Shown here: piece by piece, positions 5,767-46,275 of the stretch
Numbering within the stretch: the first letter of the stretch is position 1
Layout: every line of letters starts with the position of its first letter
Assembly: GCA_043228905.1 (NCBI GenBank)
Contig: JBHGNT010000012.1
Coordinates: forward strand, 13,888,001 to 13,952,000
Reading direction: 5' to 3'
Source of the DNA: Azolla caroliniana
Taxonomy: Eukaryota > Plantae > Polypodiophyta
Length of the DNA stretch: 64,000 nucleotides
The notes under the pieces: model-generated
Seen by the model: the letters and a program-made list of their open reading frames with translations, nothing else
The model's database searches: none
Told to the model about the DNA's origin: nothing
Position numbers and translations under genes: made by a program

Positions 5767-6704
5767 CATCTTCAAAAATAAGAACGTCGTGAACTGAGTC
5801 TCAGTATTTCGAAAAATCGTGAGGCTCCGGATTCAGGATGGCTCCAGTATGGCGGAGCACATCAATGCCTTCCAAGGGTTGATGAACCAAACCACCTCTC
5901 TAGAAGTACCTCTAGCCGACGAGGTATTAGCACAGTTGTTGCTAGGATCCCCTCCAAACAATTGGGAGACGCTCGTTGTCACTTTGGGCAACGTTGGGCC
6001 GGAAGGGAAGCATTTATCCCTAGAGCAGGTGATGTCAAGCTTGTTGAATGAAGAAGCTCGCATGAAGGACCGTGAGTCCAATACCGACCAAAAGGCCTTA
6101 GTCACGGAAGGTGACACGATTCAGGGTAGAGGCCTAAATCGAAGTCCCCAGAACCGAGATAAATCGGGGACCAGGTCGAAGTCGAGGAGGAGGCCCACGT
6201 GCTTCTATTTTGGAAAGCCGGGGCACTTCTAGAATAATTGTTGACACTTTCGAAAGGATAAAGGGGGAGTTGATGGCGTAGAGCCAAAGAAAATCCCTCA
6301 CAAAAAGAACACCTCAACAATCACCGTGAGTGAGGAGGAGTTGTTGCTCATTAGTGAGAAAAACAAATTCGGGTGCGTTGTTTCTCCTAAGCCCTGACCA
6401 AAAGTTCTTCTCATCCTATAGAGCCAGATGTCGGCATTTGAGATGTCTGTTTGGAAATCTCAACCGGGTGTAGACTCGTGTTGAGAGATGTACGACACGT
6501 TCTGGAGGTTATAATTGAACCTAATATTAGCCAGTCGGATAGATGATGAAGGCTACACGGGTAGCATTCGGAACAATGTCATGAAGTTCTGGAAGGGAAG
6601 TCTGATCATGCCTCAAGCTTGGAAAACCAACACACTGTACATAATGAATACTTGAATATGCCGAGGGGAAGAAAACATGGCAGTCGACACGGTCAGTAAA
6701 CTAT
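5767..6704 (+). mobile_element. Ty1/copia fragment (gag to GAG-pre-integrase) of an older copy that hosts the element at 6705
   Basis: ORF 5819-6232 (SMAEHINAFQGL..SLLNEEAR..CFYFGKPGHF) is a close paralog of 6790-7740. It ends at DTVSKL and resumes as (W)HRKLCHM at about 12205. Confidence 0.85.
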
Positions 6705-9700
6705 TGTTAGGAAATAGGTCCCTCCATATGGGAAGGGAGAAGAACAGTGTTGATGAGCAAACTCGGCCGAGGCCGAAACCGGATGAGAAATGGATGATTC
6801 ATTGGGAGGTATGTTCAAGCTCACCGGCTCCAACTATTCGGTGTGGAAGTCGAAGATGAGGGAAATGCTCATGGTTAAAGATCTTTGGTTGCCGGTTCAG
6901 TTCGGGGACAAGAGACCGAACAAAATCGACGCCACGATATGGGAGGTGATGCACATGAAGACAACGGCGTACATACGGTGCTTCATCGACATGAGCCTAT
7001 ACAACAACTTCAATGAAGAGAGCAAGGCTCATGAGCTCTGGGAGAAGATCGGCATTATGTTTCAGAACAAAAATGTTGTTAACCAGGTTTCGGTATTCCG
7101 GAAGCTAGTAAGACTCTGGTACCAAGATGGCTCCAGCATGGCGGAGCACATGAATGCCTTCCAGGGGCTGATACACCAGGCAACATCATTGGAAGTACCT
7201 CTCGCTGACGAGGTACTAGCGCTACTCCTGCTTGGTTCCCTCCCAGATAGCTGAGAGACGTTGGTTGTCACTTTGGGCAACACCGGGCCAGAAGGGAAAC
7301 GGTTATCCCTAGCAAGAGTAAAGTCGATCTTGCTTGATGAGGAGGCGCGTCGGAAAAATAAAGATACGAGCTCCGACTCCAAAGCACTCCTTACTGAATC
7401 GGAACGCGGAAGACAAAGAAACCGTAGTCCCCAAAACCGGGAAAAGTCGGGGACACAGTCAAAGTCAAGGGGGAGAGCTACTTGCTTCTATTGCAGCAAG
7501 CCGGGATACTTCCAGAAGAACTGTCGGCATTTCCGGAAAGACAAGGAAACCGACGGTACCGATTCGAAGCGGACACCGGACCGGAACAGTAAAGACCGGA
7601 AGGGAACGAGTGCAATCGCGATGAGTGAAGAAGAGTTGATGCTCATCACCGAGGAGAGTGAAATAAACCTTGCCGGCAACGAGATGACCTGGGTGGTCGA
7701 CTCCGGAGCGTCATTCCACCTTACCCTGGACCGTAAATGATTCTCATCCTACACAACCAGTGATCACGGTTGTGTCCGGATGGGGAATGAAGGTACATGC
7801 CGAATTGTCGGCATAGGAGACGTGTGGTTGACAACACCAACCGGTTGCAAGATGTTGCTGAAGCATGTCCGACACGTTCTGGAGGTTCGTCTGAACCTGA
7901 TATCAGCCGGTCGGCTAGATGATGAAGGCTACACGGTTAGCATCCGGAACAGTGTCATGAAGTTCAGCAAAGGGAGCCTGATTGTGGCTCGGGCCCGGAA
8001 GGTAAACACATTGTACCTGATGAATGCCTGGTTATGTCCGGAGGAAGTGAACGTGGCATCCGACACTACCGATGAGTTGTGGCACAAGAGGTTGTGTCAC
8101 ATGAGCGAGAAGGGGATGAAGAGGCTTGCTGACGACAACCTCATTCCAGTGAAGAATGTGCACTTGGAGAAGTGCACTGATTGTCTAGCCAATAAACAAA
8201 ACCGAACCTCCTTCCGATCAAGGCCACCGATGAGACGTAATGCGCCACTGGAGTTGGTGCATACGGATGTATGTCAAGTGGATACGAAGTCACATGCCGG
8301 ATTGCTGTACTTCGTGATGTTCATAGATTACCACAGCCAGAAGCTGTGGGCCACACCATTGAAGACAAAGGATCAGGTGCTATCTGTCTTCAAAGAGCTC
8401 CACGCGAGGGTGGAAAGAGAAACCGGCCGGAAGCTAAAGGCGGTTCGAGCAGATAACGGAGGTGAATATCGGGGGCAGTTCGAGGAGTACTGTCGCTCAA
8501 AGGGAATCCGGTTCGAATTTACTGTGCCGAAGACGCTAGAACTAAACGGGCTGGTCGAGAGAATGAACCAGACCATAATGGAGATGGTCCGGAGTATGCT
8601 GGCACATGCAAAACTACCCAAGAAGTTTTGGGCTGAGGCACTGTCGACGGCGACATATGTGCTAAACAAATCACCCTCAGTACCCTTGGACGGAGACACG
8701 CCACAAAGAGTCTTGACCGGTAAGGAAGTGTCCTACCGTCATTTGAAGGTATTCGGGTGTCTCGCGTACGTGCATGTAGCTAAGGACCGGAGAGGAAAGT
8801 TAGATCCAAAGACCTGGCCATGCATATTCCTCGGTTATGGCGACGAAGAGTTCGGCTACCGAGTGTGGGACCTGGTCGACAAGAAGGTATTCCGGAGTCG
8901 AGATATTATCTTCATGGAGGACAAGATGCTCGCCGACTGGGAGTCAGAGAAGAAGATAATGAACTCCGAGTCGACCGGTAAGGATCGATTCTACGATGAG
9001 CAGACCCAACCGGCAAGAGACCGATGGGCACTCGAGGAACCAGCCGGTTACGGTGAGGATACCGAACCGGCAGAAGAAGAAGTAGAGGAAGCTGAAACCG
9101 GAACCGGCCAAGACCCCGAATCGGATTCAGTTGAAGAGCAAATGGAGGAGCCGGTTACCGAAGCCCAGAGACAGAGATATCCTCTTAGAGAGAGAAGGCC
9201 CCCCCGGAGATTTCCGGATGCAGAGCATGTGCTGCTAACCGATGAGGGGGAGCTAGAAAGCTTCGAAGAAGCGAAGGATGACACCCACAGCCACAAATGG
9301 TTAAGTGCCATGTAGGATGAGATGGATTCCTTGCATGAGAACCATACGTACGAATTAGTGGAGTTGCCGAAAGGAAAGTAGGCACTCCGAAATAAGTGGG
9401 TGTCCAAGTTGAAACTGGGAGATGCCGGCAACCCCCCGAGATACAAAGCCAGGATCGTGGTGAAGGGGTTCCAGCAGAAGAAGGGCGTGGACTTCGACGA
9501 GATATTTGCCCCGGTAGTAAAGATAACCTCCATCCGGACGGTGCTGAGTATAGCGGCAAGCATGGACCTCAAAGTAGAGCAGCTGGACGTGAAGACGACA
9601 TTTCTTCACGGTGACCTCGAAGAGGAGATCTACATGCAGCAACCGGAAGGATTCGTGGAGAAAGGGAAGGAGCACCTGGTATGCCGGTTGAGGAAGAGCT

Positions 9701-10270
9701 TGTACGGACTGAAGCAGGCTCCCGACAATGGTACCGGAAGTTCGACTCCTTCATGGCCGATCAAGGGTACCACAAGACGCAGGCCGATCACTGCGTGTTT
9801 GTGAAGAAGTTCGAAGGAGGCAACTTCCTGATACTCCTTCTGTACATGGATGACATGTTGATCGTCGGACGGGACCAAGTCAAAATACGGATGCTGAAGA
9901 AGGCTCTCAACCGAACCTTCTCAATGAAAGACTTGGGTCCGACAAGACAAATGTTGGGGATGCATATTATCCGGAACCGGTCAGTGAAGCAATTGTGGTT
10001 GTCACAGGAGAAGTACGTGACAAAGGTGCTTCACCGGTTCAACATGGCAGATGCGAAACCGGTCGGATCGACACTTCCGGCAAACTGCAGGTTATCCGGT
10101 AAGCAAATCCTGAAGACGAAAGCAGAGAAGGCGGATATGATGAAGATTCCATATGCCTTTGCCGTCCGGAGCTTAATATACGCAATGGTGTGTACCCGAC
10201 CAGATATAGGATATGCAATCGTAGTGGTGAGCTGGTTCATGAGCAATACCGGCAAGGAGCACTGGAACGC

Positions 10271-10961
10271 TGTCGTGAAGAAAACCGCCCACAAGAGGAA
10301 TCGGAGGAGCAAGGCGTGGGAAACGGCTCTACACACACACGCGCGCCAAGAAGTACCTAAGGACGAAGTAGGTACATACGAGGATCCGAGGTGGGAGATT
10401 CGGTTGGTATGCAGTTAATACCAAACGGCCTCCTGACGGGCTATAAAAAGGAGGAGGAAGAATAGAAAAAGGGATCTCGCGGGGAGAGGACGAGGTGCTG
10501 CCGAACCGATTTCGGAGCTCCTCTCTCACTCCTGCTTTCTCTGTCTTCTGCTCCATCGCGTACCTGTGCAGGTTTCGAGGAGGCTTGCGCTGTTCCGTGG
10601 AACGCCCCGAGTGCGTCCTGCAGCACCTCCGACCTGTTTTCCCTTTCTGTGCGTCGCAACATACAGGGGTCGGCATCTGTTCGCCGCCCCGTCCGTTTCG
10701 TTAGTATCTATTCCGTGCCCCACCGCGGGTTGTAATACTTTGGTCTGTTATTTCCTTGCATTCATAAGTACATATCTTCCGTTGTTGCGTCCATCTGCGT
10801 CGGCGTTTGTTTGTGATCTCTGTTTGTTGGGCCGTGTCCCTGTGCAATCTTCGGTTCTGTGTAATCGGGTCTCTCTCTTACTCCGCTCTCTCTTGCTCTT
10901 CGGTCCAAGACCCCCGTGGTCCCTCCTCCTTTCTGCACGCAAGGGCGTAGCAACCCCGACA
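10271..10961 (+). mobile_element. Solo LTR (TGTCG...CGACA family) with a perfect 4-bp TSD ACGC, inserted in the copia RT/RNase H linker
   Basis: ACGC|TGTCGTG...CCCGACA|ACGC, with TATAAAA at 10442. Excision restores HWNAVKWILRYLKG. Confidence 0.93.
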
Positions 10962-11525
10962 ACGCGGTTAAATGGATACTCAGGTACTTGAAGGGCACTT
11001 CGCATATGTGTCTCCGATTCGGCTCCGGAAAACCTCAACTTGACGGTTTTACCGATTCGGACATCTCAGCTGATGTGGATACCAGCCGGTCTACATCCAG
11101 GTATGTAATGACATATGCAGGGGGAGCTGTTTCGTGGCAGTCGAGGCTACAGAAGACGGTTGCGTTGTCAACCACGGAGGCGGACTACATGGCGGCTGTG
11201 GAAGCCGACAAGGAAATATTATGGCTGAAGGACTTCATCGGAGAGCTTGGTATCCGGCAAGATGAATATCGGCTCTATTGCGACAGTCAAAGTGCCATCC
11301 ACCTTGCTAAGAATGCGGCCTACCATTCCCGGACGAAGCATATTCAGCGTAGGTATCACTGGATCCGAGAAAGAGTAGATGACCAGGAGTTCACGCTGAC
11401 GAAGATCCACAAGGCCGAGAATGGGTCAGATATGCTGACCAAAGTACTGATACCCGACAAGTTGGATGCATCCCGGAAGCGAGTCGGACTAGTAAGACAT
11501 CCCATGCCGGAGTGAAGGGGGAGTT

Positions 11526-12207
11526 TGTTAGGAAACAGGTCCCTCCGGATGGGAAGGGAGAAGAACAGTGATGATGAGCAAACTCGGTCGAGGCCGAAAC
11601 TGGATGAGGAGTACCCTGCTACGGAGAGCCGGATAGCGCAAACCCAGTGAGAACCGGATGAGGAGTACCCAGCTACGGAGAGCCGGATGGTGCAGACCCG
11701 GTGAGAACCGGATGACGAGTATCCGGCAAGATCCGGATGATGCAGGCCCGGTGAGGAGCGCTCTCCGGATGAAGAGACATATTCGTAAATATGTTTCTGA
11801 GAGTCCATCGTGGCTATATTTGTAAATAGCCGAAAAGTCATATTAGTATAAATATGACTTAGGGCAAACTTTTGATAGTGTAGTTGTCATTCTTGTTGGT
11901 GCAAGAAGAGAAAGTGTGTAACAGTGTACACAGAGAGAGAGAGAGAGAAAGAGACGAAGAGTTCGCATCTCTGTTGTAACCGCCGACTGTGGCGAAGATA
12001 GCAAACTCGAGGTTGTTACCTCGGTGCTCCACCATTGTACATTCTTATATAGTGATAGTTTGGAGTCTGTGGACTCCCGTGGTTTTCCCCTCTAAGGGTT
12101 TTCCACGTTAAACATCCTGTGTACTCTTCCTCTCCTTTGTGTCGTGTCTTTCGTTTCCCGTTTTCTGTGTATGATTCTAAGCTCGGCTGTGGCCGAGCGT
12201 TGCACAG
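11526..12207 (+). repeat. 3' LTR of the copia element; same family as solo LTR 57965-58772; terminal ~25 bp lost
   Basis: It follows the PPT, begins TGTTAGGAAACAGGTCCCTCC like 6705, and aligns along its length with 57965-58750. Confidence 0.88.
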
Positions 12208-12712
12208 GAAGTTGTGCCATATGAGCCAGAAGGGGATGCGAAAGCTTGCCGAGGACAATCTCATTCCGGAGGTGAGGAATGTGCAACTTGAGAAGTGCAC
12301 TGATTGCTTGGCCAGCAATCAAAATCGAACATCCTTTTGAGCATGGCCCCCGATGAGGAAGAAAATGCCACTGGAACTCGGGCATAAGGACATATGCTAT
12401 GTGGACACGAAGTCGCATGGTGGTTCATAGTATTAAGTGACCATCATTGATGACCATAGCCGGAAATTGTGGGTTTCCATGCTGAAGACGAAGGATCAAG
12501 TGTTATCTGTCTTCAAAGAGTTTCAAGGGAGGGCCGAGAGAGAAACTGATTGAAAGCTTAAGGCAGTCCGAGCGGACAATGGCAGAGAGTATCGTGTCGA
12601 AGACGCCAAAGATTAATGGGTTGGAGGAGAGAATGAACCAGACCGTAATGGAAAGGGTCCGAAGTATGCTTGCACATGTTAAGTTACCGAAGATGTTCTG
12701 GGTTGAGGCGTC
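12205..12712 (+). mobile_element. Continuation of the older copia copy (GAG-pre-integrase and integrase fragment)
   Basis: Translates to HRKLCHMSQKGMRKLAEDNLIP..CTDCLA..NGLEERMNQTVMERVRSMLAHVKLPKMFWVEA, paralogous to 8080-8640. Confidence 0.85.
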
Positions 12713-13856
12713 GTTGCAATCCAGGATGCGGTCGAGAACCAAATTTTTGCAATGCATCAAGGTACTCATGATGGAAGAACCTAATGCGCTCGATACATGA
12801 CATCTTCTATCTGTAGTCATTATCATTGTTATGATCCCAAGCTAGCAACTTGGCTTCTTCATGTGTAAGGTCATCGTACACTTTACATTCTGCATATTTG
12901 AAGAATGGGGTAAGAGGATACTCCTTCACAAGTTGACGTTCAGCTTCAGTAGAGTGTGATCCTCGAATCACGTAGTATGTGTAATCGTCAACCGATCTAT
13001 ACTTAAAGTCAACAACAGTTGGGCACTTATCAGGGTCGACCATTACTAAGAATGGCACTAGAGTGGCGTGTGGATTTATCTTCATTTTGCTTTTTGAGTT
13101 TTGCACATGCACTGAATGTGGCTCTCTTATTTCTAGAGCCCATCTTCCTGTTTCAAGATCAATGGGTGTCCTCTGAATAGAGGAGATCGTCTTTACAATG
13201 CTCTGAGGGGAGTATTCCCAATGCAATGTGGCTCCCTGGAGGAATAACTTCGAGCTCGGTATCTTCCTCCTCATCCTCCTCAGGTTGCTGCCTTTTCTTG
13301 TACTTCTTATGTTCCGGTTTTGATTTATTGGCAGACTTTGGTGGTGTGGTTGCTTGCGCGACCATAAGATCTCCCTTAATATAAGGGTGAAAAACAACAA
13401 TCAAATTATTTTTGGGCTCAACATCTTTTTTGAAAGCTTTCGGGTGGCATGAGTCAACTATGAAATGTTGTTCATCTATCCTGACTTTGCGCATCCCCAC
13501 CGAGCTATCAACATCGAACAAGAGGTTCGATGAGTCGTTGTCTTCGTATTCGATTTTCTTTACATGGCCGTAGGTGAAAGTCTTCCCCACCTGCAACATG
13601 CCCTTACATTTAGATTTCGCAAAAATAAGGAGCAAATCTCTTTCATCCTGGTTATAGATTAATGTCCACTCGACATGAGGGTAGCCCTTTACGAGAGGCT
13701 CCCCACTACTCTTGTCTCCTAAAGTGTGCGAAGTTCCATCCCCTCCCGACTCAATAAACGTTTTCCGTAAGTCAGGCTTGTACACGGTGTTAGAAGTTTC
13801 TTTTGTTGGGGAGGGAATCTTCAATTTGAAGGATGGGACCTTCTATCTTGATTCAC
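12710..13856 (-). pseudogene. Disrupted gene with a ParB/Srx-fold domain, preceded by a possible OB-fold-like region and an acidic linker; probable DNA-transposon cargo; 3' truncated
   Basis: ORFs 13824-13159 and 13400-12807 are joined by one frameshift, and the frame continues past one stop. The product reads LEIREPHSVHVQNSKSKMKINPHATLVPFLVMVDP..YYVIRGSHSTEA..EEAKLLAWDHNNDNDYR*KMSCIERIRFF. This fits the ParB pattern R..V..L...I......P.V....Y.IIxGxHR..A...EN..R..L..IE. A possible splice acceptor (TTTCAG) is at about 13856. Confidence 0.6.
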
Positions 13857-14602
13857 TGAAAACAACAGGTAATAACACAATGATATATCAATAATCTTAA
13901 AAATAAACAACGGAAACCTGAAAACTAAGGTAAAGTTCCACAAAAGTAGGCGAAAATCACCCGTTTAGGGTTGTAATGTTACATAAAAAACATTGAGAAA
14001 ACTGCCAAAAAATAGCAAGAAAGTGACCAATTCTAGTATATTGATCATGAAAGTCCCCCTTTCAATGAGAGGTGAAAACTTGACCAGGGAGGCGAAAACT
14101 GGAAGTCTTGGTTGCTTTGTGCTCCTGTGCTCTTCTGTTGCTTGAACACCATAATGACAATGAGAAGATGACTTCCCCTTATATAATTTAGTTTTTTTTT
14201 TTTTTTTTTTTTTAATTTAAAAAGAAGAAGAAGCGTTTGGACATGGTGCTTATTATAGAACTAAACTTTGAGCCTATTTTGGACTCTCATGATCTTACTA
14301 GGCTTACTCAAAATGTCCTCAAACTTGAGTACAAATTCTCTATTTTCTATTGAGCCTTTTTAAGTATCTTGTAACAGTTATTCTCAATTGAGGAATATAA
14401 CCATGTTAATAATAAACGGTGCCATATAAAGTCAAACGATTATCTAGAGCAAAGTTCGACGTCACTTTTTTCGATAGAGCCTTTTAACTTAGGTAAAATA
14501 AGAAATATTAAAGTAGATACAAATCATGACAAGTCTAGTTTTTCGAATGTTGACGACGACTGTGTCAACAAGCCTCAAAATTTTCGAAGAGTTCCTCAAC
14601 AA

Positions 14603-17044
14603 GTGAGCGTTAAACGATATAATTTTCTGTGTTTGGATCGCCAAATTGTAATTGATATATGTAAGGTATGTTGTGGGAGCCTTTTTCTATCAAAATTTGG
14701 AAAGGTAAACTTGGGGGGGTTGCGACAAAAGTATTTATCTCTCAATGGCGACAAACAAAATACATTCTTGATTGCCAATATGCAACTTGTTAAGGACCAT
14801 CTCACAGTGTCATGTTCTCAGCAGGTGGAATATTACCTTCACTTACTATGAAGAGTTGTCAAGTTGCTTTTAAAATTGCCTATAGCATCGGGAACATGAG
14901 GCAACAAAGAATTGAACATCGATTACTTAAGGGGTGGTGGGTACCTTTCAACAATACAGAATCTACATGTAAGGGTCTAATTGAGCGGCATGTCGTTAGA
15001 TGGATGGAGATATATTTCTCGAAGTAATGTGATGTTATGCCCACCATTGGAAGGTTACATTTGTTAGATAACTTCACTCATCGTGAGGTATACCAAGCGT
15101 ATAAGGATGACATGTTATTGGAAAGTGTACCTTACATACAATATTGACATTTTAATCGTTTATAGAGATCAAAGTTTAACAATGTGGTCATACCCTGCAA
15201 GGTCCGGATGGGTGTTTGTTCTATACGCGTGAGTTTAAAAAGCATGGCAAAGAGTGGGACAATAGATGAAGAAATAATAAAATATAAGAATTTATTGAGA
15301 GAACATCGAGAAAGCCAAGCGTTGGAAAGATCTAAAGTTATGCACCATCGTCAAAAAGCGCTTCAATTGCCAAAAAGATATATGTGCGTGATTATAGATG
15401 GGATGGATCAGAAGAAAACTTGTTTGCCACATTTTCAAAGGTTGCCCAAGGATTTTAGAGATGAATGCCTAGTGCAAATGCACTTAGTCGGATGTCTTTT
15501 GTTTTGTTAGACAATAAGGCCTCAAGTGTTCCTAACTTATCAAAATATCCACAACGACCCTAATCTTACAGTGATAGTCATGCAAAGAGTTCTATAGAGT
15601 TGGCAAAGTTTATTCCCACCAGTACTATACATGCAACTTGACAACACGGCGAGAGAAAACAAGAACTCAACTGTGTTTGGTTATTTGAGGATGTTAGTAG
15701 ACTAGGGTATTTTAAAAAAGATTAAGGTCAACTTCTTGCTAGTTAGTCATACACATTATCACATAGATGAAATGTTTAGTAAGTTCTTCAAGAAATTAGC
15801 TAGGTGCGATGCTTTCACACTTCCAAAGCTATCAAGGTTGATCGTTGAAGCTTATACCCCCAAGCAAGATGTGCAACATTTAGGTGAAGTATATGATTTC
15901 AAACGCTTTTGTTTGGAAGGTGATGGGATTGGATGTAGGGTTCTTGCTCCGCTTAATAATATAAGTTTTAACCATGTCTTCCTCATCCAAAAAAGTGTGG
16001 TCGGTCACAACCAAACCATGCTATATGCCAAAAACTACTCATCTAGTTCGCAATGGGAGCGACAAGACGGATGTATGCTCTTATTGCATTTCCCAAATGC
16101 AATAATCTATGGTGTTGAGCAAATGCCCTATGACGACCATAAAAGATTGGATGTTGGTAGTTCAACTGAAGAGCAAAAGATATATTGGATGCCTTGAGGA
16201 AAAACAGAAAAATATTGAGCAAACAAAAAAGAACACTGCTGATCAAGATGTGGATTGGTGGGATGTCTTCTTTAATCATCAACATACTATATTAGATAAC
16301 CACTTTATAGGGTATTGGCCACTACAAAATCAATTCGAATGGGCGTTTGGTGGCCCATCAATGGCGAGCACAACTCTTTTACAACCACTAGATAATCTTG
16401 AATTGAATAATCTAGTTCATCCACGACAAAGAGATATTTACGTGGGACCAAGATTATTGCATGTTGCAAAGGCGAGGTGACAAGGCAATCTACATGCGCT
16501 ACAAGTTGGTATGTTGGTTGCAACATTAATTGGGGGTGATAAGTTGGGCCATCCCTTCTGGATTGCCAAAATCATTGAAATTATTAAGGATGATGAAAGC
16601 AATCACGTAAAGTCTATTATGGTTCATTGGTATCATACCTCTTCCAAAGATGCATTTACTGGGAAGTACTCTTTAGAGATGGTTAAGGATGTCGAAGGCA
16701 CAAGCTGAAAGCAGAGAAGAAAGAATCTACCAAGCACGTCTACTCTAGCACTTGATAATGTTGACATACTCGTGTATGACTTCTCCTTGACCAAAACAAG
16801 TGATCTAAGATAGACTACAATCAAGATAATAAAAGACAAGATCCCAGATGTGCCTGTTGACACAACACAAAGACGAACAAGGAGTATGTCTCATAATCAC
16901 AGTGACACTGGATTGCAATTGGATGAAGACAATGCATTGGTTGCTAGTGATGATGAGGATGAGACCTCACAAAGCTCTTCTAGTTCATCGGGTGGGTTTG
17001 AAGGGGAAGGCGTATCTTTGGGAAGTGATGGATCTCATATATGA
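14603..17044 (+). pseudogene. Degenerate Sola-like DDD/E DNA transposase with a C-terminal BAH/Tudor-like segment
   Basis: Stitched frames give Cys-rich N-terminal blocks (CKVCC; CQVAFKIAYSI; CDVMP..LHL; VVIP..MGVCS). The catalytic-core-like motifs follow: YMCVIIDGMDQKK (about 15380), MQLDNTARENKN (about 15631) and FLLVSHTHYHIDEMFSKF (about 15733). After these come HPFWIAKIIEII..VHWY (about 16550) and an acidic tail. There are many stops and frameshifts. Confidence 0.72.
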
Positions 17045-19357
17045 AATGTAAATATTGTATGTTACATCAATATAACGATTCACAAATATGTATAAATATA
17101 CATGTTAGTCATTTTGTAATTTTTGTACGTTCTCTTCTAAATTTCACGTGTCAATTATTAGGGGCATTTTTAGAAAGCCCTAAATTTCCAAAACCCTTTA
17201 CACATGCGATGGTCCTTTTTGTGAAATGACCTACTTTGTGCCTTTTTTGGACGGACTGTTCTTAAATTGTGACATATTACCTATTTCAAATGACCTGGTG
17301 TTTATATAGTTAATATAAGTTTTCTTTCAAATGTTGATTCAATGATGTTGTAGTGGTAATTTACTAGTTATATAAAACGTTTACATATGTATATGAGATC
17401 AATACCTCATTTGACATATATTTGATATGTGATTCATGTTGTATGCATACAAGGTTAATACCTCAATTGTGTGTTACGTTCACATACATAGCGTATGAGG
17501 TCAATACATCAATTTCTATGTAAAGGATATGTGTGTCGTATGCGTAAGAGGTGAAAACCTCAATTATGTATTACGTTCACCCTTATTTTTGGATGTTTTG
17601 TGTGTGTGGAGGCTATATGCCTCAATTACGTATCTTGATTTACATCATTCGTTGGCTATGTGATGTTACGATTTTTTTAAATATATGCATATGTAATCAC
17701 GTGTATATGTATTTAATCGTATACATGGGATAAACATAAATATATATAAGGTTTTTTTTTTCATAATTATGTATGCTGAACGTTGTCCTTGTCAGGGAAA
17801 GGATCTTGGTGGCCATCCTCACATTTTTGTGAGAATGGCATAGTCGTCATCCTTTTCTTTCAACAATTTTTTGTTTTTGTCATCTCGTTGGTCACTTCGA
17901 TCTTACTAAGCGTTATAACAAAAAGATCATAGCTACAATGATGTTGAGAACGTAGGGCTTTACCCACTTTAAGTGAGGTCGCCCCTATGACACACGCATC
18001 CAACATCCCTTCCTCGTTACATGGTCATGATGCCAGCATGAGATCATCATTACAAAAGGCATTCGTAATGATGTAACCATGTGATGGGCCACATGGGCCT
18101 ACTACGAAAAGAGAGTCGAAGAGGGCTCGTGTGCTTTGACCATTAGGTTGCACTTTGGGGTATGTCGTCGTACCAACATAGTTTTGTAGTAAATGAGGGG
18201 GAAATAAGGACTCTCGACATATATGTTTTCATTTAAAAAAACATATATGGGCAAATGCCTTCACATATCTCTCATATGCATAAACACTAAACATTCAAAA
18301 GAAGCAAACCATCTGGTTAGATCAAGCATTTAATGTATTTGTTCTCGAGGTCTCGAGTTCAAATATGACCAAGATCATACAAAATTGTTGATACATATGA
18401 CTATAACACATGTTTAGACTTTAGGTCTAAGTGCACTTCGAGGTCCTCGTAATAGGACTTAAAGAGCCGAAACCACATGCGTGGGCACAAAGACATAGTT
18501 TATTGTTAACATTTTTTCGTATTTAAACTATTCATGACGCAAACATACATGGTTGAGCCTTGGGGAGCCTCCATGAGAAAATCGATATAGAGATCAGGGA
18601 AAGACATTCATTTGTCACCCCCATGGTTTTTGAAACACCTTTGTGTTACCATAGTATCTTGGTCTTGAACCTCATCTCATACGTCTAAAGGGGTATTGAC
18701 ATGAGATCATGATATCGATTAATGTTTGCCCATGATATGTCTACATAACGACACAATGTTATGACTATTTGTCTGACCTTATGGTGGAAATATTTAACCT
18801 AAATATTATATTATTATTAATTAGAAAAATAAGTAATTATGAAGAGTTATTTATTATTAGACTTTAGAGAAAACACTTCATTGAAGAGACAACTTTTTGT
18901 CCATCGTCTCTACAAACAAGCCATTTTTTACTAATGTAACACTACACAATCAATATAGAACAAATTTTATGTATGTGTGATCTCTCTCTCTAGCAATCAT
19001 TCTCTATTTGTATAGTTGCCGAATTCTACATGGTATCAAATGTATAGATTTCCGCATCTATCAAATAATACTAGAGAATCCTAGGAGTGTTGATCGATTT
19101 GTCATCAAGACAAGCGCTAAGCCAGATAGCCATCTTTCATAAAAATTGCACAATCCTCAACTCCTGCCAACATTCTCAACACACATAAACTTTCATTAGT
19201 AAAGTTATCAAAGCAAAATTATCGCATTTGGAGTGCTCGACTCGAATTATTATTTCAACACTACAAACTTTGGGATGTAGTGTCAAGATTATCAACAAAA
19301 CCTGATCTCCCCGGACCTGATCAAGTTATTTAGGAAGAGAAAGATCTTGTAGCAAAG

Positions 19358-30081: not shown

Positions 30082-33000
30082 AAGATGTATTAACGTCTTC
30101 TAAGGCCAAATTTGGCCCATGAGACAATTGGTTTACAACAATAGAGTATTTATCCAGTCATCATAACTAAAATAAAATTAAGTAAAAAAATAGAACTTAA
30201 ACTAAAAGAGTTCTAGTAGTGTACAATATGTAGTATACTCGAAAGTGACTATACACTAAGCCTAATTTTATTTCCACCCAAGCCTCTCGAAAAGAAGTGG
30301 GGGGTCAAAGGGTCTTGATGTGGGTTCCAATGTAGAGAGTGCCCTCGCCATGGCTTCTAGGCGGCGTAGCTCACGTTCCCTTATTTTCAATATTGCTTCC
30401 ACATCACGTCGAGTTGCTTTGAAACCCGGCACCCGAGGACGTCTGGTTCTTCTCTGGTTTTCTGCCTCATCAATGGAAAGGCCGAGTGGTGCAAGTGTGT
30501 CGGCATTCGTTGTCTCCTCAGGTTCTTGAAAAACTACATTTGTTACATGTTCGTGATCATTAGCAACATTATTGTCAACATTTTGTAATTTATTCTCTCT
30601 GTGTTGTTTTAGCTCTAGAATGTATTTGCCTAATTTCTTTATATCTAGAGTATCTAATAGTTTGGGGAGGGTGGGAGACGGACCAAGTATGTCTTGGTAT
30701 TTTGCCCTTATCTCGGCATAGGTTGGACACTTGCATGTAAAGTGGTACTCATCCTCTATCTCTATGTGGCATAACCTACATATCCTTTCCTCCCTAGGGA
30801 CTCCACTAGTACGGCCATTTTCAATCTCAAGTTGGTGAGATGATATTCGAAGTTGTCCAATGGCACCCTTAGTGCATGTGGTAAGAATACATCTAGATAT
30901 TTTGGCCGCGTGATAAAACCTAACTCAGAGAAGTGCATGAAGTGTTTCTTATAGTACGACATTTTAGATGTGAGTGGCTCTAGTGAAGTGATCCATTTAC
31001 ACCGAGTGTAAATTTGCCATATTTCTTGGCGTATTACTTTATTGTGGTTCTCATGAGAGATTAAGGTGTTATCACTCGTGTGGTTGTACCTAAGGGGAGG
31101 TAGGTTATTAATGTCTAAACCATTCGCAAGAAGCCAACTCACCATCATGCCATACCATGAGCTAGTATAGCCGGACTCATACAATGATCGAGAGGCCTTA
31201 AAGGCTTGATGAGATATTCTATCATGTGGTTGGCTATGTATCCTATCAATGAAGACTACAAGTTGAAAAAGTGCCTCTACTAGCATTGGGGGTAACGTGA
31301 ACTCGGCCCTAATAATGTCATGTGGTATAGTCGATTTGCTTCGGAGTTGGCGTGATAACATCATCACCAATGGTCTCTCTAATTGCGTCCACATGAAGGA
31401 TGGTAATCCTGGAGCCCAAACCGCTGATGCATACATGAGGGAGGGGGTCACTAATGAGTCAAAGAGCCACCCTTTAGTCCGTGGCTCTTGAAAGTGTGCT
31501 TGGTGGCATTGTCTCTCTAGGAGTGAGAGGGATGCATGTCCTCTCGTGAGTCTATCCTTCGCTGCCTGTGTCATCGAAAATTTACCTGAGCGGGCACTAA
31601 AAGTGACTCCGAGATAGACATACGATCCAACCACCTCGATTGGGCTATGGGAGATAGTTAGGTGACACTTAGCTCTAACTTGGGCCGATGTGTGGAAGAT
31701 AAGGACTTTCGTTTTCCCTAGATTCACTACCAAACCTCGTTGTACACAAAAGTCATCTAAGGCATTAAGGTGCCTCTGTAGGTCGTGTTCGGATTCAGAG
31801 AGCAAAACTATGTCATCTACATAGAGCAAGATACGAACCTGCATATCCCTAAGGACCACTCCGGTGCCTCCCTCACGAGCAATAAAATCTGTGATCTCAT
31901 CAATGTAGATCCCAAAAAGCGTCGGTGATAGGGGGCAACCTTGTTTTACACCAATAATGCTAGTGAAACGATTGGATAGGCCACCTGGGCATCGGACACA
32001 CCCGGACACTTGTTCATATAGTGCGTAGATGGCCCATACCATATCATCTGGTATCCTCAAGCTTTTAAGTCTATCAAACAACCGCTCTCTAGGGACTGTG
32101 TCAAAGGCTTTGCAGAAGTCCACAAAACAGCAATATAATTTCTTCTTGCGAGCCTTAGTTTGGTCAATTAGGCATCTAAGTGTGAAGATATGATCAATAG
32201 TGGAGAAGGCTCGTCTAAAGCCAGCTTGTTCAGGTGCACGAAGGTTTAGGGTCTCCATGTAGTCGCTAAGCTCTGCTTCCATTACTGCACCATATAACTT
32301 AGCAAGGGTATGGCCTATCATAATGGTCCTATATGTATTTGGGTCCATGGGGTCCCCCCCTTTATGTATGGGGGCCACTATATTCATAGTCCACTGTGGT
32401 GGAAAACCCTCCGCAATGGCACGATTAAAGATTAGAGTTAGCAAGGGAGCTAGGCACTCTCTCGCATATATAATGTGTTCTGCTCGCAATCCTGTGTGGT
32501 CCATGGACTTCCTATGTTGTAATTTCTTTATGACCTTCATGACCCTAGAGGTCGTGAAAAGTGTCCCCGTGGTAGGCCGGGGTGTGGAAGGCATTGGAAA
32601 GGGTGGTTGGTTTGGGATTTGGTAAAGTCTCTCTGTATATGTGTGCCAAGTTTCGGGATCTTCGATGGGTGTTTGTGGTCTTGGCTCCCGTAGTCTCTTC
32701 CATGCCGTGGCGCAATCGCTACTCATGAGCATATGGTAGAGTTCCCAGTATTGGGATGCCTCCCACGCTCGTCTCTTACGACGTGTCATCTTACGCATTT
32801 CTTTGCGAGCTTGTATGGAGGTAATACTACCATTGAGTTGCGATACTGTAAGTTGTCTATGTAGGTCCCTACAATCCTCGTCATACCATTTATTTTGTGG
32901 CATTGATCCTGATCTACCTTGATTTGAGTGTTTTGTATATGGGAAACTGCTAGCTGCTGCGGAGTGAAGGATGTGTGTGAGTTTTGTACTAAGGCTTTCT

Positions 33001-34780
33001 AACGGTAGGGAGGGATCAATGGAGGGGAGATGGGCCTGAACATGTTGAGAGTATATGTCAGAGAGCTCATGTGTGAAATGTATTGTGGTGTGATGGCATG
33101 GTTGACTAGACTTGGTGACCTTAGAGATATCACATTTTAGCTCGAAGTATAAGAAACTATGGTTTGCACCAATAGGGCATGGGGCCACTCGGAAGGAGTT
33201 AATCATGTGGGTAGCTTCAGGGCGCCCTATTAGATAGTCAACTGTGCTTTCCCCTCCTCCATGTGGGAAACATGTGAGCTCTTCCGAGCCCGGCCACTTA
33301 GCTAAACCATTATATATGACCATCTGGTGCCGACTGCCAAGTTCGAGCAGATGATGGCCAAAGCTCGTGGCGTCCGCACCTTGATCCTTTGATCTACGTG
33401 TGGTGCCTATGTCTAAAGGATCAACATTTACCATTTCTAGGTTTCTATTCATCTGAGATACTGTGCATTGTCGGGATTGGGTTCTCGCATTGAAGTCTCC
33501 TACAAGAAATACTTCTCCTTGGGAAGAATATCAGATTATGTCATCCGATAGGGGTTCGTATGGAGAAGGCCCATGTGGCATTCCTTCATCAACTAATCTC
33601 GTCAAGCCACTAATATTATAACGGGATCCTTTTGGGGGAAAGTAACAAATGGCGAAAAATACTGCATGGCCTTTGCTTGTGGAGACTTTCACCCACATAA
33701 AACGAGCTTCTGGGTCTATCTTCATTATTTCTATCCTATTATGTAGCTCTCTACGAAATAGTATCGCGACACCCCCAGATCCCCTAGTAGTGTGTCGACG
33801 TGAGGTTTGTCTAAAAGCGGACTCCCAACGGGTGGTATTAACAATATTTTCATCTTTTATTTCTTTTTTAATGTTTCTTTTAACCACATCTACCCAACCC
33901 GTTTTAGCTAACTCTATGTTATTATTAACTTCCTCTTTAACTTTTTTAATTTCGTCCTTTATATCCTCTATAGAGGATATTTCACCGTCTTCTCGAGATA
34001 CCTCGATGTCCTTAAGTTGTTTTTTAAGGTCGATGTTTTCTACTTTAAGTTGTTCTATTTCGGCCTTGAGGGCGTCTTTTTCCTCTCTATCTTTTTTCTT
34101 GTGGATTTCGGTGTCTTTCACCCATTTTTTCATATCCATCTCTATTTTTGTTAAACGATTAAACATATCTAAAAAGTCCTCCTTACTTATAGCCTCGTCT
34201 TGTATATCCTTATGTTCCTTAGTCCGTCTAGACATCATTGTGGTGTCAATAAGAAAAAAAAAGGTAAAATAAATGGGTTCAAGACTTAGCCAAGTTTGTG
34301 TGTGTGTCGCAATCACATCGGCATTTTGTAGCACGCGACGAGCACACCAAAAGAACCCACCCACGAACTCATCAAGAAAAAGGCACTTCACCACATCAAG
34401 AGAGAACGGAGAAGAAAACACCCCGTGACGGCGACGGTGACGGTGGCAGTCATCAAACGACGATAGACGACGGCAGCAGACAGCCGACGGCGGCAACAGA
34501 CGGTAGACGGTGGCAACAGACGGCAGACGGCGGCAGTAGACGGCAGACTACTACAAACTGTAGGCGACGGCCGCAGACGGTGGCAGACGGCGACGGCCGC
34601 AGATAACGGCAGACAACGGCGACGGCGACGACGACGACACTAGCCGGCGACAGCAACGGCAGAGAGAGACGAGGAAGCGAGAGAGAGAGAGAGAGAGAGA
34701 GCAGACGGCGACGGTTGCAGCGGCTGCAGACAACGGCGACGGTGACGGCGACGGTGACGACTGCGACAGCAACGCAACAG
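30082..34780 (-). mobile_element. Non-LTR retrotransposon (RTE/RTEX-like LINE), near full length with an internal deletion
   Basis: GC-rich low-complexity 5' UTR, then a coiled-coil ORF1 start at about 34238. Endonuclease motifs GGVAILF, VGDFNAR and STVDY. RT motifs EQAGFR, CFVDFCKAFD, GVKQGCPLSPTLF and YVDD. C-terminal HQLEIENGR..RICRLC..EDEYHF..C, then an AT-rich 3' UTR. Confidence 0.92.
30762..33452 (-). CDS. LINE ORF2 (endonuclease C-terminal part plus reverse transcriptase); 896-aa open stretch, frameshifted near the C-terminus
   Basis: Carries the RT motifs listed for the LINE. There is an upstream stop at 33531-33533, and the Cys/His tail lies in another frame below about 30860. Confidence 0.85.
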   Translation of the reverse strand: MNRNLEMVNVDPLDIGTTRRSKDQGADATSFGHHLLELGSRHQMVIYNGLAKWPGSEELTCFPHGGGESTVDYLIGRPEATHMINSFRVAPCPIGANHSFLYFELKCDISKVTKSSQPCHHTTIHFTHELSDIYSQHVQAHLPSIDPSLPLESLSTKLTHILHSAAASSFPYTKHSNQGRSGSMPQNKWYDEDCRDLHRQLTVSQLNGSITSIQARKEMRKMTRRKRRAWEASQYWELYHMLMSSDCATAWKRLREPRPQTPIEDPETWHTYTERLYQIPNQPPFPMPSTPRPTTGTLFTTSRVMKVIKKLQHRKSMDHTGLRAEHIIYARECLAPLLTLIFNRAIAEGFPPQWTMNIVAPIHKGGDPMDPNTYRTIMIGHTLAKLYGAVMEAELSDYMETLNLRAPEQAGFRRAFSTIDHIFTLRCLIDQTKARKKKLYCCFVDFCKAFDTVPRERLFDRLKSLRIPDDMVWAIYALYEQVSGCVRCPGGLSNRFTSIIGVKQGCPLSPTLFGIYIDEITDFIAREGGTGVVLRDMQVRILLYVDDIVLLSESEHDLQRHLNALDDFCVQRGLVVNLGKTKVLIFHTSAQVRAKCHLTISHSPIEVVGSYVYLGVTFSARSGKFSMTQAAKDRLTRGHASLSLLERQCHQAHFQEPRTKGWLFDSLVTPSLMYASAVWAPGLPSFMWTQLERPLVMMLSRQLRSKSTIPHDIIRAEFTLPPMLVEALFQLVVFIDRIHSQPHDRISHQAFKASRSLYESGYTSSWYGMMVSWLLANGLDINNLPPLRYNHTSDNTLISHENHNKVIRQEIWQIYTRCKWITSLEPLTSKMSYYKKHFMHFSELGFITRPKYLDVFLPHALRVPLDNFEYHLTNLRLKMAVLVESLGRKGYVGYAT

Positions 34781-38702: not shown

Positions 38703-41700
38703 AAGATGTCGCGTTATTACGCGCGTGCGTGGAGAAAGGCGGGACCATGGGGGTCTTGGACTAGGGAGTGACGGAGCGTAGGAAGTCGTACTTCACCGTT
38801 TCCGGGACATCCCAGAAGCACACCGGAAGCAACCGAAGGGAGAGAGAGAGAGAGAGAGCACTTAACACCGACTCACGCACACACACGCACACACACACAC
38901 ATGCCGACCCGACTCACGCCCTTATGTACAGGAAACGCAGGAAAGGGCAAGCACCCGACACCAACAAAGACACGAATATACACAGACAGACGCAAAAGTA
39001 TATATATAAAAGGAAGAATACATTCCCGGCGTCGAGCCGGACCAAGGTAGGTTACAACAATCACCTACTGTCAAGCCGCCGTCAAGGAGCTCTCGGCTCG
39101 TCGCGCCGAGCGGGGTCTTGCACAGGAGGCCGAACCAAAGCAAACCCTAAGCAAAACACGAAGTGGGAAGAAGAAGAAGAAGAAGAAGAAGAAGAACCCT
39201 AAATCTAACAGTATACCCTCTAACGCAAAATGGGCAACCCCTTCACAAAGGGTGCTCCCTTCCTTTTATAGAACAAGGAGAGGGATGCGTTACAATGTGG
39301 GATAAATCCCGACTTACATGGGATCGTCTGTCCCGACTTGACTACTCTTTGGCACCATAAAGGCGCCCTCGTTATTCACACTAAATGTACATGGGTGCGT
39401 ACTCATGCTGCACCCCGCCGATGTAGCCAATGTTTCCTGGTTTCCACCTCTGGCCGAAATTCTTCACGACAACGTGCTTAACATCCCAATGATCACAAAG
39501 AACCTGGTGTCGGTAAGTCAGATCGTCGACCAGGGGATGCAAGTTCTGTTTACGCACCTCGGGTGCTTCATTGAGGAAGAGGTCCCGATCATCGCGCAAG
39601 GGCGTCGGGATAGGAGGATGTTTATCCTTGACACCACCGACGTAGGCACCGCTCTGTTCTCAAAAGGACAAAAGGTCGAAATGGTAATCGACATGTGGCA
39701 CAAGCGGATCGGCCACGTCAACTATCAGAGGCTTTAATTGAAACAAGTTGTTTTCAGATTGTCGAAATTCAGAGGCTGGAAGGCCCAAATATGTGAAGCA
39801 TGCGAGCTCGTGAAGCAACACCGCCTTATGTTCCCCACCGAAAGAAACCGGAGCCGTAACAAGTTGTATCTAATACATTTGGATGTATGGGGACCGACAC
39901 ACAATGTTAGTGTTGGCGCGAGCCGATATTTAATCTCCTTCATCGACGACTATAGCCGGCACACATGGATCTACCTAATCGAAAGGAAAAGTGAAGTTTT
40001 CTACTGTTTCCGGAACCTGCAAAGTCTTGTCAAACGGGAAATGGAGAGTAAGGTCAAGTGCATGTCTTCGGATGGCATAAAGAATATTTTTCTAGCCAAT
40101 TCAATAGTTATCTGCAACAGAAAGGATTTCGGAGGGAATTCAGCTGCCAATACACACCGGAACAAAATGGTGTGGATGAAAGGAAGAACTGGTCAATTGT
40201 GGAGGCGGCACAGGAAATGCTGGAAGAAAAGAGCATGCCCAAATTCTACTGGGCCGAAGCGGTCCGGACGACCATCTACATCCAAAACCGGATCGGGGGT
40301 AAGGTGTCAACACACGAGCTATATTTCGGGCAGAAGCCGAATTTAAGGCACCTTAGGATATTCGGTAGCATAGCCTATGTGCATGTGCCAGATGAGAAGC
40401 GGAGAAAGCTGGATTCGAAGTCGGAGAAGTGCATCCTTGTCGGCTACTCACATGAGCAAAAGGGTTATAAGTGCTATATCCCCCGAACAAAACAAGTTCG
40501 AGTGAGCCGAGATGTCAAATTTGATGAGTCGACATCATGATACTCTCTATCGACTCCGATGTCCAATTCCGACCCGATTCCGGAGGATGAGGCTAGTGAG
40601 CCCGAAACAATCCAAGCAGAAGATGAAGAAGGATTCGGTACTCTATATGAGAGTCTGATCTCATTCTGGCTAAGTGAGCTGAATGAGCGACTGAGTCGGA
40701 ATGACCAGTCATATGAAGAGTCGGCGAGTAGTGGTGACTCGACCTTGTTCTCCTCGCGCAAGGAACCGAGGAGACAGTTCACGCACAAAAAGAAGGGGAA
40801 GAAGAAGATGTCGGAGTATGCCACCGGCAGAGACAAGTCAGACTAGAGCGAGTTCGACTCTAGACAAAGCAGAGATGGACCTTTGGAAGAGAATTTCGAG
40901 TCGGCCAAGAAGGCCATGAAATCGGCGAATCAAAAATTGTGCCGATCCACCCGCCAGAAAAACCCCGCGAAGAGGTACGGATATAACAAATATATGGCGC
41001 ATCATTATGCGTACATGGCGAAGGTGGCAACCGAGCATGAGCCGAATTGGCTGAAGGCTAAGGACCCGAAAGCGGCTAAGGACCCGAATTGGCTGAAGGC
41101 CATGGAGGAAGAGATGCACGCTCTCACGGAGAATGAGACGTGGGACTTGGTGGACGTACTAAAAGGAGTGAAGCCCATCGGTTTCCGGTGGGTATACAAG
41201 GTTACATACAACACCGACAATTCCATCAATAGGTACAAGGCCCAGTTAGTGGCCATAGGCTACCCACATCAACATGGCATCGACTACGATGAGACGTTCC
41301 CACCGGTCGCAAAGATGACGACCGTCCCTGTCCTGCTTGTGGGGCCAGTGGCGAAGGGGTGGCATCTACATCAAATGGATGTAAAGAACATGTTCCTGCA
41401 AGGTGATCTTCAAGAGCAGGTGTATATGGTTTAGGCCCCCGGATTTCAGTTTGGAGTGAATACATCGGCGATGTGCCGATTGAAGAAACCGCTCTACGGA
41501 CTCAAGCAAGCCCCCGCGCCTAGAACGCGAAGATCACGAAGAGCCTATGTCAGATGGTGTTTGCTCCGTCGAAATTAGACTCTTCACTCTATCAGCCAAG
41601 GTCCCCCCCCCCCCCCCATGAGCAACCACTATCTTCTCCTGACTCACTACGTCAGATGGTTGCCTAACAAGATCATCATGAAATAATAATTTCTTCCCTT

Positions 41701-42089
41701 TCTGTGTATACGTGAGAGGGGTGACTTTGGAGGTTTCGATCAGAGAGCTTTGGTATTTTAGTTGAATGATCTTCACGGGGCGCTCATCCTTGGGGTCCAT
41801 AGACCTAATGGCACAACAAATTTGAAAGACTTAGGAAATGGGCACTAAGAGTTCTATAAAGAGTCAAATAGGTTTGTTTTCCACCTAAAACCGGTCATTT
41901 CGCTAAAAAGTTCTTTGCTTCATACCTAAACCCCAAACCTAAAAAACATTGATTTATTTTCCAAATCCAGTATTATAGGTCAATGTTGCGTTGCTACAGT
42001 GGTCCTTTATTGTTGTTGCGCTACGGTGGTGGTCGATTGATCTTTGGTCTTTGGAGGTCACTCACTTGCTCGCTCATGTTCTCTCACGT

Positions 42090-42909
42090 TGTCGCGAAAA
42101 TACGACGAGGATACGTGAACTTGAGGCAGGACCCCGGCGCCTCCGATGAGAGGATATCAGATTCGTGCGTTTATACTTTAAAGAATTAACAAAAATCAAA
42201 AAGTTTGACAAATTTCATTATGAAAGGAAAAAAAAATTACAATCTATCCCAAGATTGGGATTGCAAAAGTTTTAGCTTACAAAGGTTAATAGATTAAGCT
42301 TTACGAAATATAGCTTAGATAATAATAAAAATTAAGGATTATCAAGAGATAGATTAGATAAGGAAAATTAGGGTTCTTGAGTGTTATCACTTTGATAAGG
42401 AAATTAGGGTTTATGGCTTCGATAAGAAAATTAGGGTCCTTGAGTGTTATCGCTTTCATAAGGAAATTAGGGTTTATGGCTTCGATAGGAAAATTAGGGT
42501 TCTTGAGTGTTATGGCTTCAATAAGATAAGGGAGCAGAGAACAAAAAAGAAAATGAAGAAAAGAAGAGAGTGGAATATATATGGGTTTCTTTGTTGATCA
42601 TGCCCTTGGTGTTCCTTTCCATCCCCACTTTTTGTTGGATGGCCTCTACTTTTAGTTGGATGCAACGTCTTTATATTCGGCCATATGATCAATCATCCAT
42701 AAAGTTCGGTCCGTGCGTAATCCGTACATGCGTCGCGACCGAACATGCGTGTGCGCGCGTCCACCGAACCGTGTGTCCCTTGACTCTAGGATTCATTTGA
42801 GTCTAAGGATCCTTGCAGTCCAAGACCTATCATCCACACCCTTTCAACCCTTGTGACAAGACCCCAGTGGTTCCTCTCGAGTAGCACAAGCACACGCATT
42901 ATCACAACA
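42090..42909. mobile_element. Composite LTR-derived insertion flanked by ACGT/ACGT
   Basis: 42090 to about 42700 is the reverse complement of the 3' half of LTR 47351-48712. The right end CAAGACCCCAGTGGTTCC...CACAACA resembles the U5 end of LTR 60293-60955. ACGT occurs at 42086-42089 and 42910-42913. Confidence 0.65.
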
Positions 42910-43789
42910 ACGTCATGGGTTGCATTGCTATGGCATAAAGACATGATTTGAATAATGAGAATCCAACAAATTGAAAGAATATTCGCGTATGAAGAGTTAA
43001 ATTGACCATTTAAGGTAGCGAAATTCCTTGTGGCATAAGTAGCGACCTGCATGAATGGTGTAATGACTACCCCACTATCTCCAACATGGACTCAGTGAAA
43101 TTGAATTCTTTGTGAAGATGCGTAGTACTAACGGCTAGACAGTAAGACCCCATGCAAACAAAACAAACAAAAAACTAGCACCTTTGAAAACAAAAGTGGT
43201 AGGGCTCTCATTAAAATTAAAGAAAATTTTGATAGAAAGCATTAGATTTGTCCCAAGAAAATAAAAAGAGCATGGTTTCATATTAGTTTGTGGCACCAAC
43301 CTAGATAACTAATACAATTCCATGTGGAAGCTTTCTAAGCATTGGTATGGTCCATATGTGCTGCTAAAGGTTATTCATAATGTAACAAACCATTTGGCCG
43401 AGTTTGATGACACCCTTGTTAATGAGTAGGATGAAATTGAGGATGAACTCCATTCTAGAACTGAAAAAGATGAAAGCTAGATGTGTATCATGAACCCAAG
43501 ATGCTAGCACATATAAGAGGATGTGTACGGTTGGTAAGGGTGGACATCGTGTTGCGTTTTCCACGTGCAGTGATCATTGGTGATATAGATTATTTTTATT
43601 GTGTCAAAAGGATATGCGAGGAGAATAAGTTTTTGTAGGAGAAGGGAAACAAGAAAATCTAAGGATGTCCCACAAATCAAAATCCTTTCTGGGCAAAAAT
43701 TTGTTTATTTTTCTATGAGCAACTAACAAACATTTGTCCTTGAGGTATTCATTGAACTGGTCATGACTATTGAATCAAACATGCATACC

Positions 43790-46213: not shown

Positions 46214-46275
<62 letters not shown>

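Follow-up and report, generated by a model that had tools for sequence, protein, structure and literature searches.

The window analysed here is a 64,000-nucleotide stretch of the genome of the fern Azolla caroliniana (contig JBHGNT010000012.1, forward strand, positions 13,888,001 to 13,952,000). At 12710-17302 it contains a decayed and truncated member of a multi-copy DNA transposon family that is bounded by terminal inverted repeats. In the intact members of this family, a DUF7869 transposase gene stands head-to-head with a gene whose product joins a ParB-like domain to an amino-methyltransferase (methylase) domain, and arrays of phased palindromes often lie between the two genes. An earlier note on the window had presented such a gene pair as a candidate new DNA-transposon system. 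It is not new, as the Ectocarpus transposon Sola1-1_Ec32 has the same design (PMC12477816). The design was described in a brown alga in 2025 and is so far thinly documented; the window family adds a member from land plants.

The copy in the window

We compared the window copy with related loci from a metagenome contig scan, taking the best 80 of 160 confirmed loci (designated L001, L006 and so on), which form 34 sequence groups at 88% identity. The introns and retroelement flanks of these 80 contigs suggest that they are plant DNA. The window copy and its immediate context consist of the following features.

12199-12709, plus strand: fragment of an old Copia integrase, joined to the ParB exon at a deletion junction (context)
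12710-13861, minus strand: decayed large exon, with stops and one frameshift, of the ParB-like/amino-methyltransferase gene; cut at 12710 and recognized by sequence, with a fold predicted from the model of a relative
13862-14312, no strand: putative divergent-promoter spacer, recognized by sequence, with a TATA-like box at 14179-14186 (minus strand)
14313-17044, plus strand: DUF7869 (Sola-like, three-aspartate or DDD) transposase pseudogene, recognized by homology, whose conserved, beta-rich C-terminal domain is of unproven type
17270-17302, minus strand: terminal inverted repeat of 33 bp with its 5'-AACAC end at 17302 and three mismatches to the L006 repeat

The minus-strand ParB-like gene had been described as cut by a deletion at about 12710, and indeed the exon runs into the old Copia integrase fragment at exactly this position. 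Its 32 database relatives are 64-88% identical to it, and its core is 88% identical to protein P0004. The methylase exons and one of the two terminal repeats are missing from this copy.

The decayed DDD transposase that had been placed on the plus strand is also real. When stops are read as X, the frame 14899-16194 matches Pfam DUF7869 with an E-value of 2e-44 and retains all three family aspartates. We take DUF7869 to be Sola, a name that Pfam itself does not give. The gene is 64-71% identical to the intact, intronless open reading frame of 890 amino acids in L006, by homology to which both its start (14313) and its stop (17044) were placed. It has accumulated nine stops and about three frameshifts. 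Differences of the A-for-G and T-for-C type from the other copies are about twice as common as the reverse, which fits a trace of 5-methylcytosine (5mC) deamination. The earlier note had the gene pair right and overlooked both the terminal repeat at 17270-17302 and a ParB fragment at 41588-41851.

The label of BAH that had been attached to the C-terminal domain of the transposase was not confirmed, as this domain has no Pfam or PDB profile match; the Atlas leads for it, PWWP and BAH, both scored 0.76, below the Atlas threshold. A single-sequence fold of the transposase, made without an alignment, gave an unusable model with a predicted local distance difference test (pLDDT) score of 32, and a Foldseek search with that model returned no match. 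Sequence-profile searches of solved structures gave nothing significant for the fusion protein, the transposase or its C-terminal domain.

Intact members of the family

The earlier proposal depended on the ParB-like gene continuing into a methylase domain and on its linkage to the transposase at other loci. Both were found. The methylase exon that carries the motif DIPY lies directly 3' of the ParB exon, on the same strand, in 53 of the 80 contigs; of those without it, 25 stop no more than 530 bp from the ParB exon, and the remaining two have a truncated DIPY piece only. In five of six loci tested, a single GT-AG solution with four introns (68-102 bp) yields an open frame of 888-963 amino acids that runs from the ParB exon through DIPY and the further motif DLFSGTG into the last exon. 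For L045, no spliced solution was obtained within the exon-boundary range tried. A head-to-head transposase is present in 12 of the 13 contigs with at least 2 kb of upstream DNA, and the transposase, ParB exon and DIPY exon occur together in 10 loci.

The same arrangement of exons can be seen in other data. In the annotated Ceratopteris gene KP509_1Z236600, the ParB exon is followed by a stretch that matches the start of the window DIPY exon (44% identity over 48 amino acids, E = 4e-9). Four public sequencing runs that contain the window DNA also give coverage in all 30 bins along the entire ParB-methylase gene at the closest long locus, and a contig spans the step from the ParB exon to the next exon.

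We found 38 element ends, 32 of which start with AACAC, in varied, AT-rich flanks. Terminal inverted repeats of 33-37 bp are present at both ends in L006, L041, L045 and L070; the lengths of these two-ended elements are 7594, 7724, 7805 and 6044 bp, and that of L018 is 8.6 kb or more. In L041, the element is bordered on both sides by a TGTT target duplication, and the flanks on the two sides belong to a single Gypsy pol frame. This frame is continuous across the site if 1, 4 or 7 bases are discounted, and the longest exact duplication is 4. L006 is flanked by Copia at one end and by another repeat at the opposite end, which is expected of collapsed repeats. Spy-like ends, for which the termini would be CAC, the target AA/TT and a duplication absent, were considered and rejected: L041 and the varied flanks show that the AA is part of the end. 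At three places (L005:3960, L021:3280 and L040:4040), family ends interrupt a transposase or a methylase gene that belongs to another member, through either nested insertion or assembly joins. Across 35 aligned transposases, D436 and D478 of the triad are invariant and D355 is present in at least 90%.

The ParB-methylase protein

Exon 4 of intact copies matches PF01555 with 31.6-37.9 bits against a cut-off of 26.7. The motif DIPY (motif IV) is present in 46 of 47 matches, NPYQKP (motif X) in 37 of 38, and DLFSGTG (motif I) in all 14 matches that reached it. The resulting order, IV-X-I, is that of beta-class amino-methyltransferases. A serine in motif IV marks N4-cytosine enzymes (PMC4738411; PMC8885841), and by this criterion the protein is not one of them, as its motif IV begins with D. 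The analogy that had been drawn with the N4-methylcytosine (4mC) writers of rotifers and Marchantia is weak for the same reason.

The fold was examined on P0125, a full-length relative about 30% identical to the family, whose model was built from 36 sequences and has a pLDDT of 76. Its C-terminal domain superimposes on CcrM (Z = 22.1, root-mean-square deviation (rmsd) 3.4, 213 residues aligned), and also matches M.BceJIV and M.MboIIA. Its N-terminal domain resembles PadC (Z = 9.5, rmsd 3.0, 98 aligned) and KorB (Z = 8.8, rmsd 9.6, 131 aligned), followed by Pnob8 ParB (8.6), SerK (8.0) and sulfiredoxin, Srx (7.5). The model thus predicts a ParB/Sulfiredoxin fold for the N-terminal part. The Atlas lead for P0004 is ParB_N at 0.92; a Pfam search gave no ParB_N match. 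The sequence of the ParB box is GGSHSxEAR in this family, compared with GGGHxREAR in relatives from Chara. Separately, residues 245-450 of P0004 resemble fungal DUF3723 (Atlas 0.96), a lead that DUF3723 may also be ParB-like.

Range and selection

A profile search recovered 606 representatives at E ≤ 0.001. Among the 150 matches listed, 17 long ones were looked up by name, and the named relatives come from Chara braunii, Riccia sorocarpa, Adiantum nelumboides and Ginkgo biloba. Of all relatives with a name, those from ferns are the closest. Four proteins carry all three methylase motifs, two from Chara, one from Ginkgo and one from a metagenome. In Riccia, R1sor_010795 (DUF7869) and R1sor_010796 (ParB-like plus PF01555) are consecutive genes on one contig, so that the pair is linked in an independent lineage, a liverwort, as far as adjacency, and not orientation, is concerned. 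Ceratopteris has one transposase cluster with eight members. A scan of viral contigs found no relative. The Ginkgo protein P0113 (Gb_37443) has the same fusion of ParB-like and methylase parts with a DIPH motif, and Chara P0111 (CBR_g41648) contains two ParB-methylase units in one model of 1825 amino acids, possibly through a fusion of gene models.

Judging from substitution rates, the ParB-methylase gene is under strong purifying selection. The ratio of nonsynonymous to synonymous rates (dN/dS) of the methylase is 0.016-0.081 in the 8 of 16 chosen pairs with estimable dS; in the remaining eight, the silent sites are saturated and dN is below 0.09. The corresponding ratio for the transposase is 0.07-0.13 (six pairs). 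Pairwise divergences of the transposase and ParB parts are correlated (rho = 0.52, p = 0.001, 11 loci), in a Mantel set that includes two near-identical pairs, which inflate the correlation. The low ratios and the co-divergence indicate that the gene is a long-held, selected part of the element.

These data bear directly on a reading that we regard as very unlikely, in which the gene rides along as passive cargo, encodes a DNA binder without catalytic activity or was captured from the host. In its favour, motif IV departs from the canonical form, DIRS1 elements are known to carry an inactive methylase domain (PMC4738411), and the fusion is also present in the Ginkgo protein, which may be either transposon-borne or domesticated. 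However, dN/dS is lower than that of the transposase, the three methylase motifs hardly vary, and the gene not only co-diverges with the transposase but is also linked to it in the liverwort.

Palindrome arrays

The motif TCGATRC-NNN-GYATCGA, with at most one mismatch, occurs in 41 of the 80 loci. It is concentrated upstream of the main exon of the ParB-methylase gene, with 173 occurrences in 55 kb of this zone compared with 7 in 281 kb elsewhere, and it is present in 29 of the 36 loci that have at least 500 bp of upstream DNA. The full consensus is a 23-bp parS-like palindrome, AAnTCGATRC-NNN-GYATCGAnTT, with a conserved TCGA in each half-site. The arrays lie between the divergent genes and are internal, not at the element ends; in L018, the array falls inside what is predicted to be the first intron, which separates a short exon with the ATG from the large exon. 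The modal spacings of the palindromes in 20 subfamilies are 32, 39-42, 50-53 and 62 bp, which is near three to six helical turns, and the phasing at 10.4 bp has an R of 0.70 over 65 values that are not independent.

The spacer of the window copy has no palindrome array. Its alignment to L001 begins just beyond the L001 palindrome, which suggests that the array was taken by an internal deletion, and this is probably how it was lost. With neither the array nor the methylase half, the window copy would be inert.

Possible function

We lean modestly towards a self-modification mechanism, in which the ParB/helical part of the protein binds the phased palindromes and the fused enzyme writes N6-methyladenine (6mA) on the promoter region of its own element, thereby countering silencing. 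The ParB domain and the helical part would recognize the 23-bp parS-like palindrome, with several dimers placed on one face of the helix. The fused enzyme would then methylate nearby adenines, perhaps those in TCGA, and either the mark or the bound protein would keep the shared promoter region usable against host 5mC silencing. The protein may act in this way on any copy that still carries an array. The D in motif IV favours adenine, and hence 6mA, over 4mC (PMC4738411; PMC8885841).

A number of observations weigh against this mechanism. The motif DIPY is DPPY with its first proline changed to isoleucine, and the ParB box is without the GxxR arginine that the canonical ParB CTPase box carries, so that neither catalysis nor the use of cytidine triphosphate is assured. 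Some enzymes with D in motif IV write 4mC, and the fold is that of a relative rather than of the family itself. Seven of the 36 loci with upstream DNA have no palindrome at one mismatch or fewer. Intact elements have a CpG observed/expected ratio of 0.66-0.82 and are thus depleted, so any protection from host 5mC is not element-wide. Shared ancestry within subfamilies makes the spacing and co-divergence statistics overstate independence. Finally, the contigs probably represent collapsed repeats, and chimeric joins may occur in them; three of the four two-ended contigs have no target duplication, their flanks possibly being derived from different sites.

The same arrays could serve a regulator of transposition, which would repress its own promoters by binding them, or would use methylation to time transposition to replication, as Dam does for IS10 and IS50. 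The position of the arrays between two divergent genes is suited to autoregulation, their helical phasing fits a cooperative nucleoprotein complex, and the intact elements are still CpG-depleted. Yet the arrays are internal, away from the ends where the chemistry of transposition takes place, and nothing observed favours repression over activation. On balance, we consider this role unlikely.

The TCGA in each half-site also raises the question of whether the enzyme could write 4mC, for example on the CpG of the TCGA in the array, and so block host 5mC there. Bacterial relatives of N4CMT recognize TCGA (PMC8885841), and the model of P0125 matches M.PvuII and rotifer N4CMT as well (both with a Z of about 19). 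However, motif IV is DIPY rather than SPPY, the best structural matches are adenine methylases, albeit by a gap of only about 3 Z units, and the best phage matches of P0125 are annotated as adenine-specific or generic DNA methylases. Overall, we consider 4mC quite unlikely.

Relation to known systems

The aspartate triad and the 4-bp duplication fit the definition of the Sola superfamily, which has a DDD transposase and a 4-bp target duplication (PMC10741241). Sola1 prefers AWWT as its target (PMC3845634), whereas only 2 of 38 flanking 4-mers of the window family match AWWT, and hence we did not file the family as Sola1. The Ectocarpus Sola1 entry is also described as having a target bias other than AWWT (PMC12477816).

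The closest known element is this same Sola1-1_Ec32, in which a gene for a 1104-residue protein with ParB-like and N4C/N6A methylase parts lies opposite the transposase; its authors propose self-modification as a hypothesis (PMC12477816). As far as descriptions can be compared, both are Sola-type transposons that have terminal inverted repeats, duplicate 4 bp of the target and encode a ParB-like plus methyltransferase protein on the strand opposite to the transposase, and the ends of both start with AAC (AACCG in Sola1-1_Ec32, AACAC here). Sola1-1_Ec32 is one 21.5-kb family of a brown alga with imperfect repeats of 282 bp (PMC12477816), whereas the plant family has 34 groups, elements of 6-8.6 kb, repeats of 33-37 bp and a protein of 888-963 residues. 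Phased palindrome arrays, present here, are not mentioned in the main text of the Sola1-1_Ec32 paper (PMC12477816).

The Plavaka (EnSpm) elements of red algae that carry PAG2 and PAG3 likewise have accessory genes with a PF01555 methylase and a ParB-like domain, and tandem inverted repeats beside their ParB gene are proposed binding sites (bioRxiv 10.1101/2025.02.11.637652). They belong to another superfamily and divide these parts between two genes, one pairing ParB with a 2-oxoglutarate (2OG) oxygenase and the other the methylase with SET (bioRxiv 10.1101/2025.02.11.637652). With CcrM, M.BceJIV, M.MboIIA, M.PvuII and the ParB-methylase loci of phages, the window family shares the IV-X-I order, PF01555 and, in the relative's model, the fold (PMC4738411). 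It differs from these bacterial and phage beta-class enzymes in having spliceosomal introns, a cut-and-paste transposon as its carrier and the DIPY variant.

Rotifer N4CMT and Marchantia MpDN4MT1 are host genes with SPPY that write 4mC (PMC8885841; bioRxiv 10.1101/2021.02.12.428880), and they have in common with the window family a bacterial-type beta-class amino-methylase in a eukaryote. N4CMT is described as having a chromodomain and MpDN4MT1 as having no extra domain, whereas the protein of the window family is transposon-borne, fused to ParB and has D in motif IV. A functional analogy exists with VANDAL of eudicots, whose accessory protein binds its own element and alters methylation (bioRxiv 10.1101/2025.02.11.637652); VANDAL induces hypomethylation, whereas the accessory protein here is a predicted writer. 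A literature search found no report of such a transposon from a land plant, with subscription journals and Repbase lying outside its coverage.

Other features of the window

Two further fragments of the family are present in the window.

46415-47260, plus strand: methylase-half fragment with an intron end, the DIPY exon (46507-46970), an intron and the start of the next exon (47068-47260)
41588-41851, minus strand: 5' part of a ParB exon, of the same subfamily as the methylase fragment and on the opposite strand

A spliced amino-methyltransferase fragment had been reported at 46507-47150; it is real and spliced, but it extends over 46415-47260. It is 87% identical in nucleotide sequence to the subfamily of L019, L021, L022 and L025 and stops within the next exon, ahead of motifs X and I. 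A word search with its methylase exon gave no longer protein, and the exon, which covers only the N-terminal part of the domain, has no Pfam match above cut-off. We rejected the possibility that this fragment and the ParB half at 12710 are one split copy because they are of different subfamilies: the ParB half is closest to L001 and L011, and the methylase exon of these two loci shares no more than 40-47% identity with the methylase fragment of the window. Neither the 41588-41851 nor the 46415-47260 fragment is part of the element at 12710-17302. We also rejected a single inversion as the link between the two fragments, as the resulting order would be wrong.

The methylase fragment is flanked by an inverted pair resembling long terminal repeats (LTRs), at 42087-42661 and 48160-48715, with 70% identity. 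These were rejected as ends of the family, being unlike the AACAC repeats in sequence and having the appearance of a pair of LTRs. A tandem array of 30-bp, ACCGG-rich repeats occupies 47660-47960. The upstream region of a thioredoxin-like gene is duplicated (43787-46419 and 49788-51898, 88-93% identity), and one duplicate adjoins the methylase fragment at 46415.

The window as a whole is repeat-rich plant DNA with pieces of Copia, Gypsy and long interspersed nuclear elements (LINEs) and a single thioredoxin gene. This host gene of the thioredoxin family (52455-54830, plus strand) has a CGSC active-site motif, and its exon at 53156-53350 matches PF00085 (E = 2.7e-7). A LINE at 30762-34547 (minus strand) has an open reverse-transcriptase frame of 922 amino acids. 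The region 5777-12709 consists of a younger Copia (about 6704-12206) nested within an older, related one.

Implications

In its most far-reaching form our proposal is a tentative one, which we hold with more doubt than confidence: a transposon lineage of ferns and liverworts, with relatives in Chara and Ginkgo, would have an epigenetic system of bacterial type directed at itself, in which a ParB-fold protein would load at helically phased, parS-like palindromes, write 6mA or 4mC and so block 5mC silencing of the element promoters. If true, non-5mC DNA methylation in land plants would have an enzymatic source that is defined. The existence of real enzymatic 6mA in eukaryotes beyond a few unicellular lineages is disputed (PMC12695648), and the family offers candidates for both a 6mA writer and its binding site, and shows where to search for the mark in plants, such as Ceratopteris, that are tractable. 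The proposal of self-modification by ParB-methylases so far rests on a few lines about algae; the compact plant copies, with their intact frames and defined palindromes, make it directly testable. If borne out, it would be a new strategy of anti-silencing or self-regulation beside that of VANDAL.

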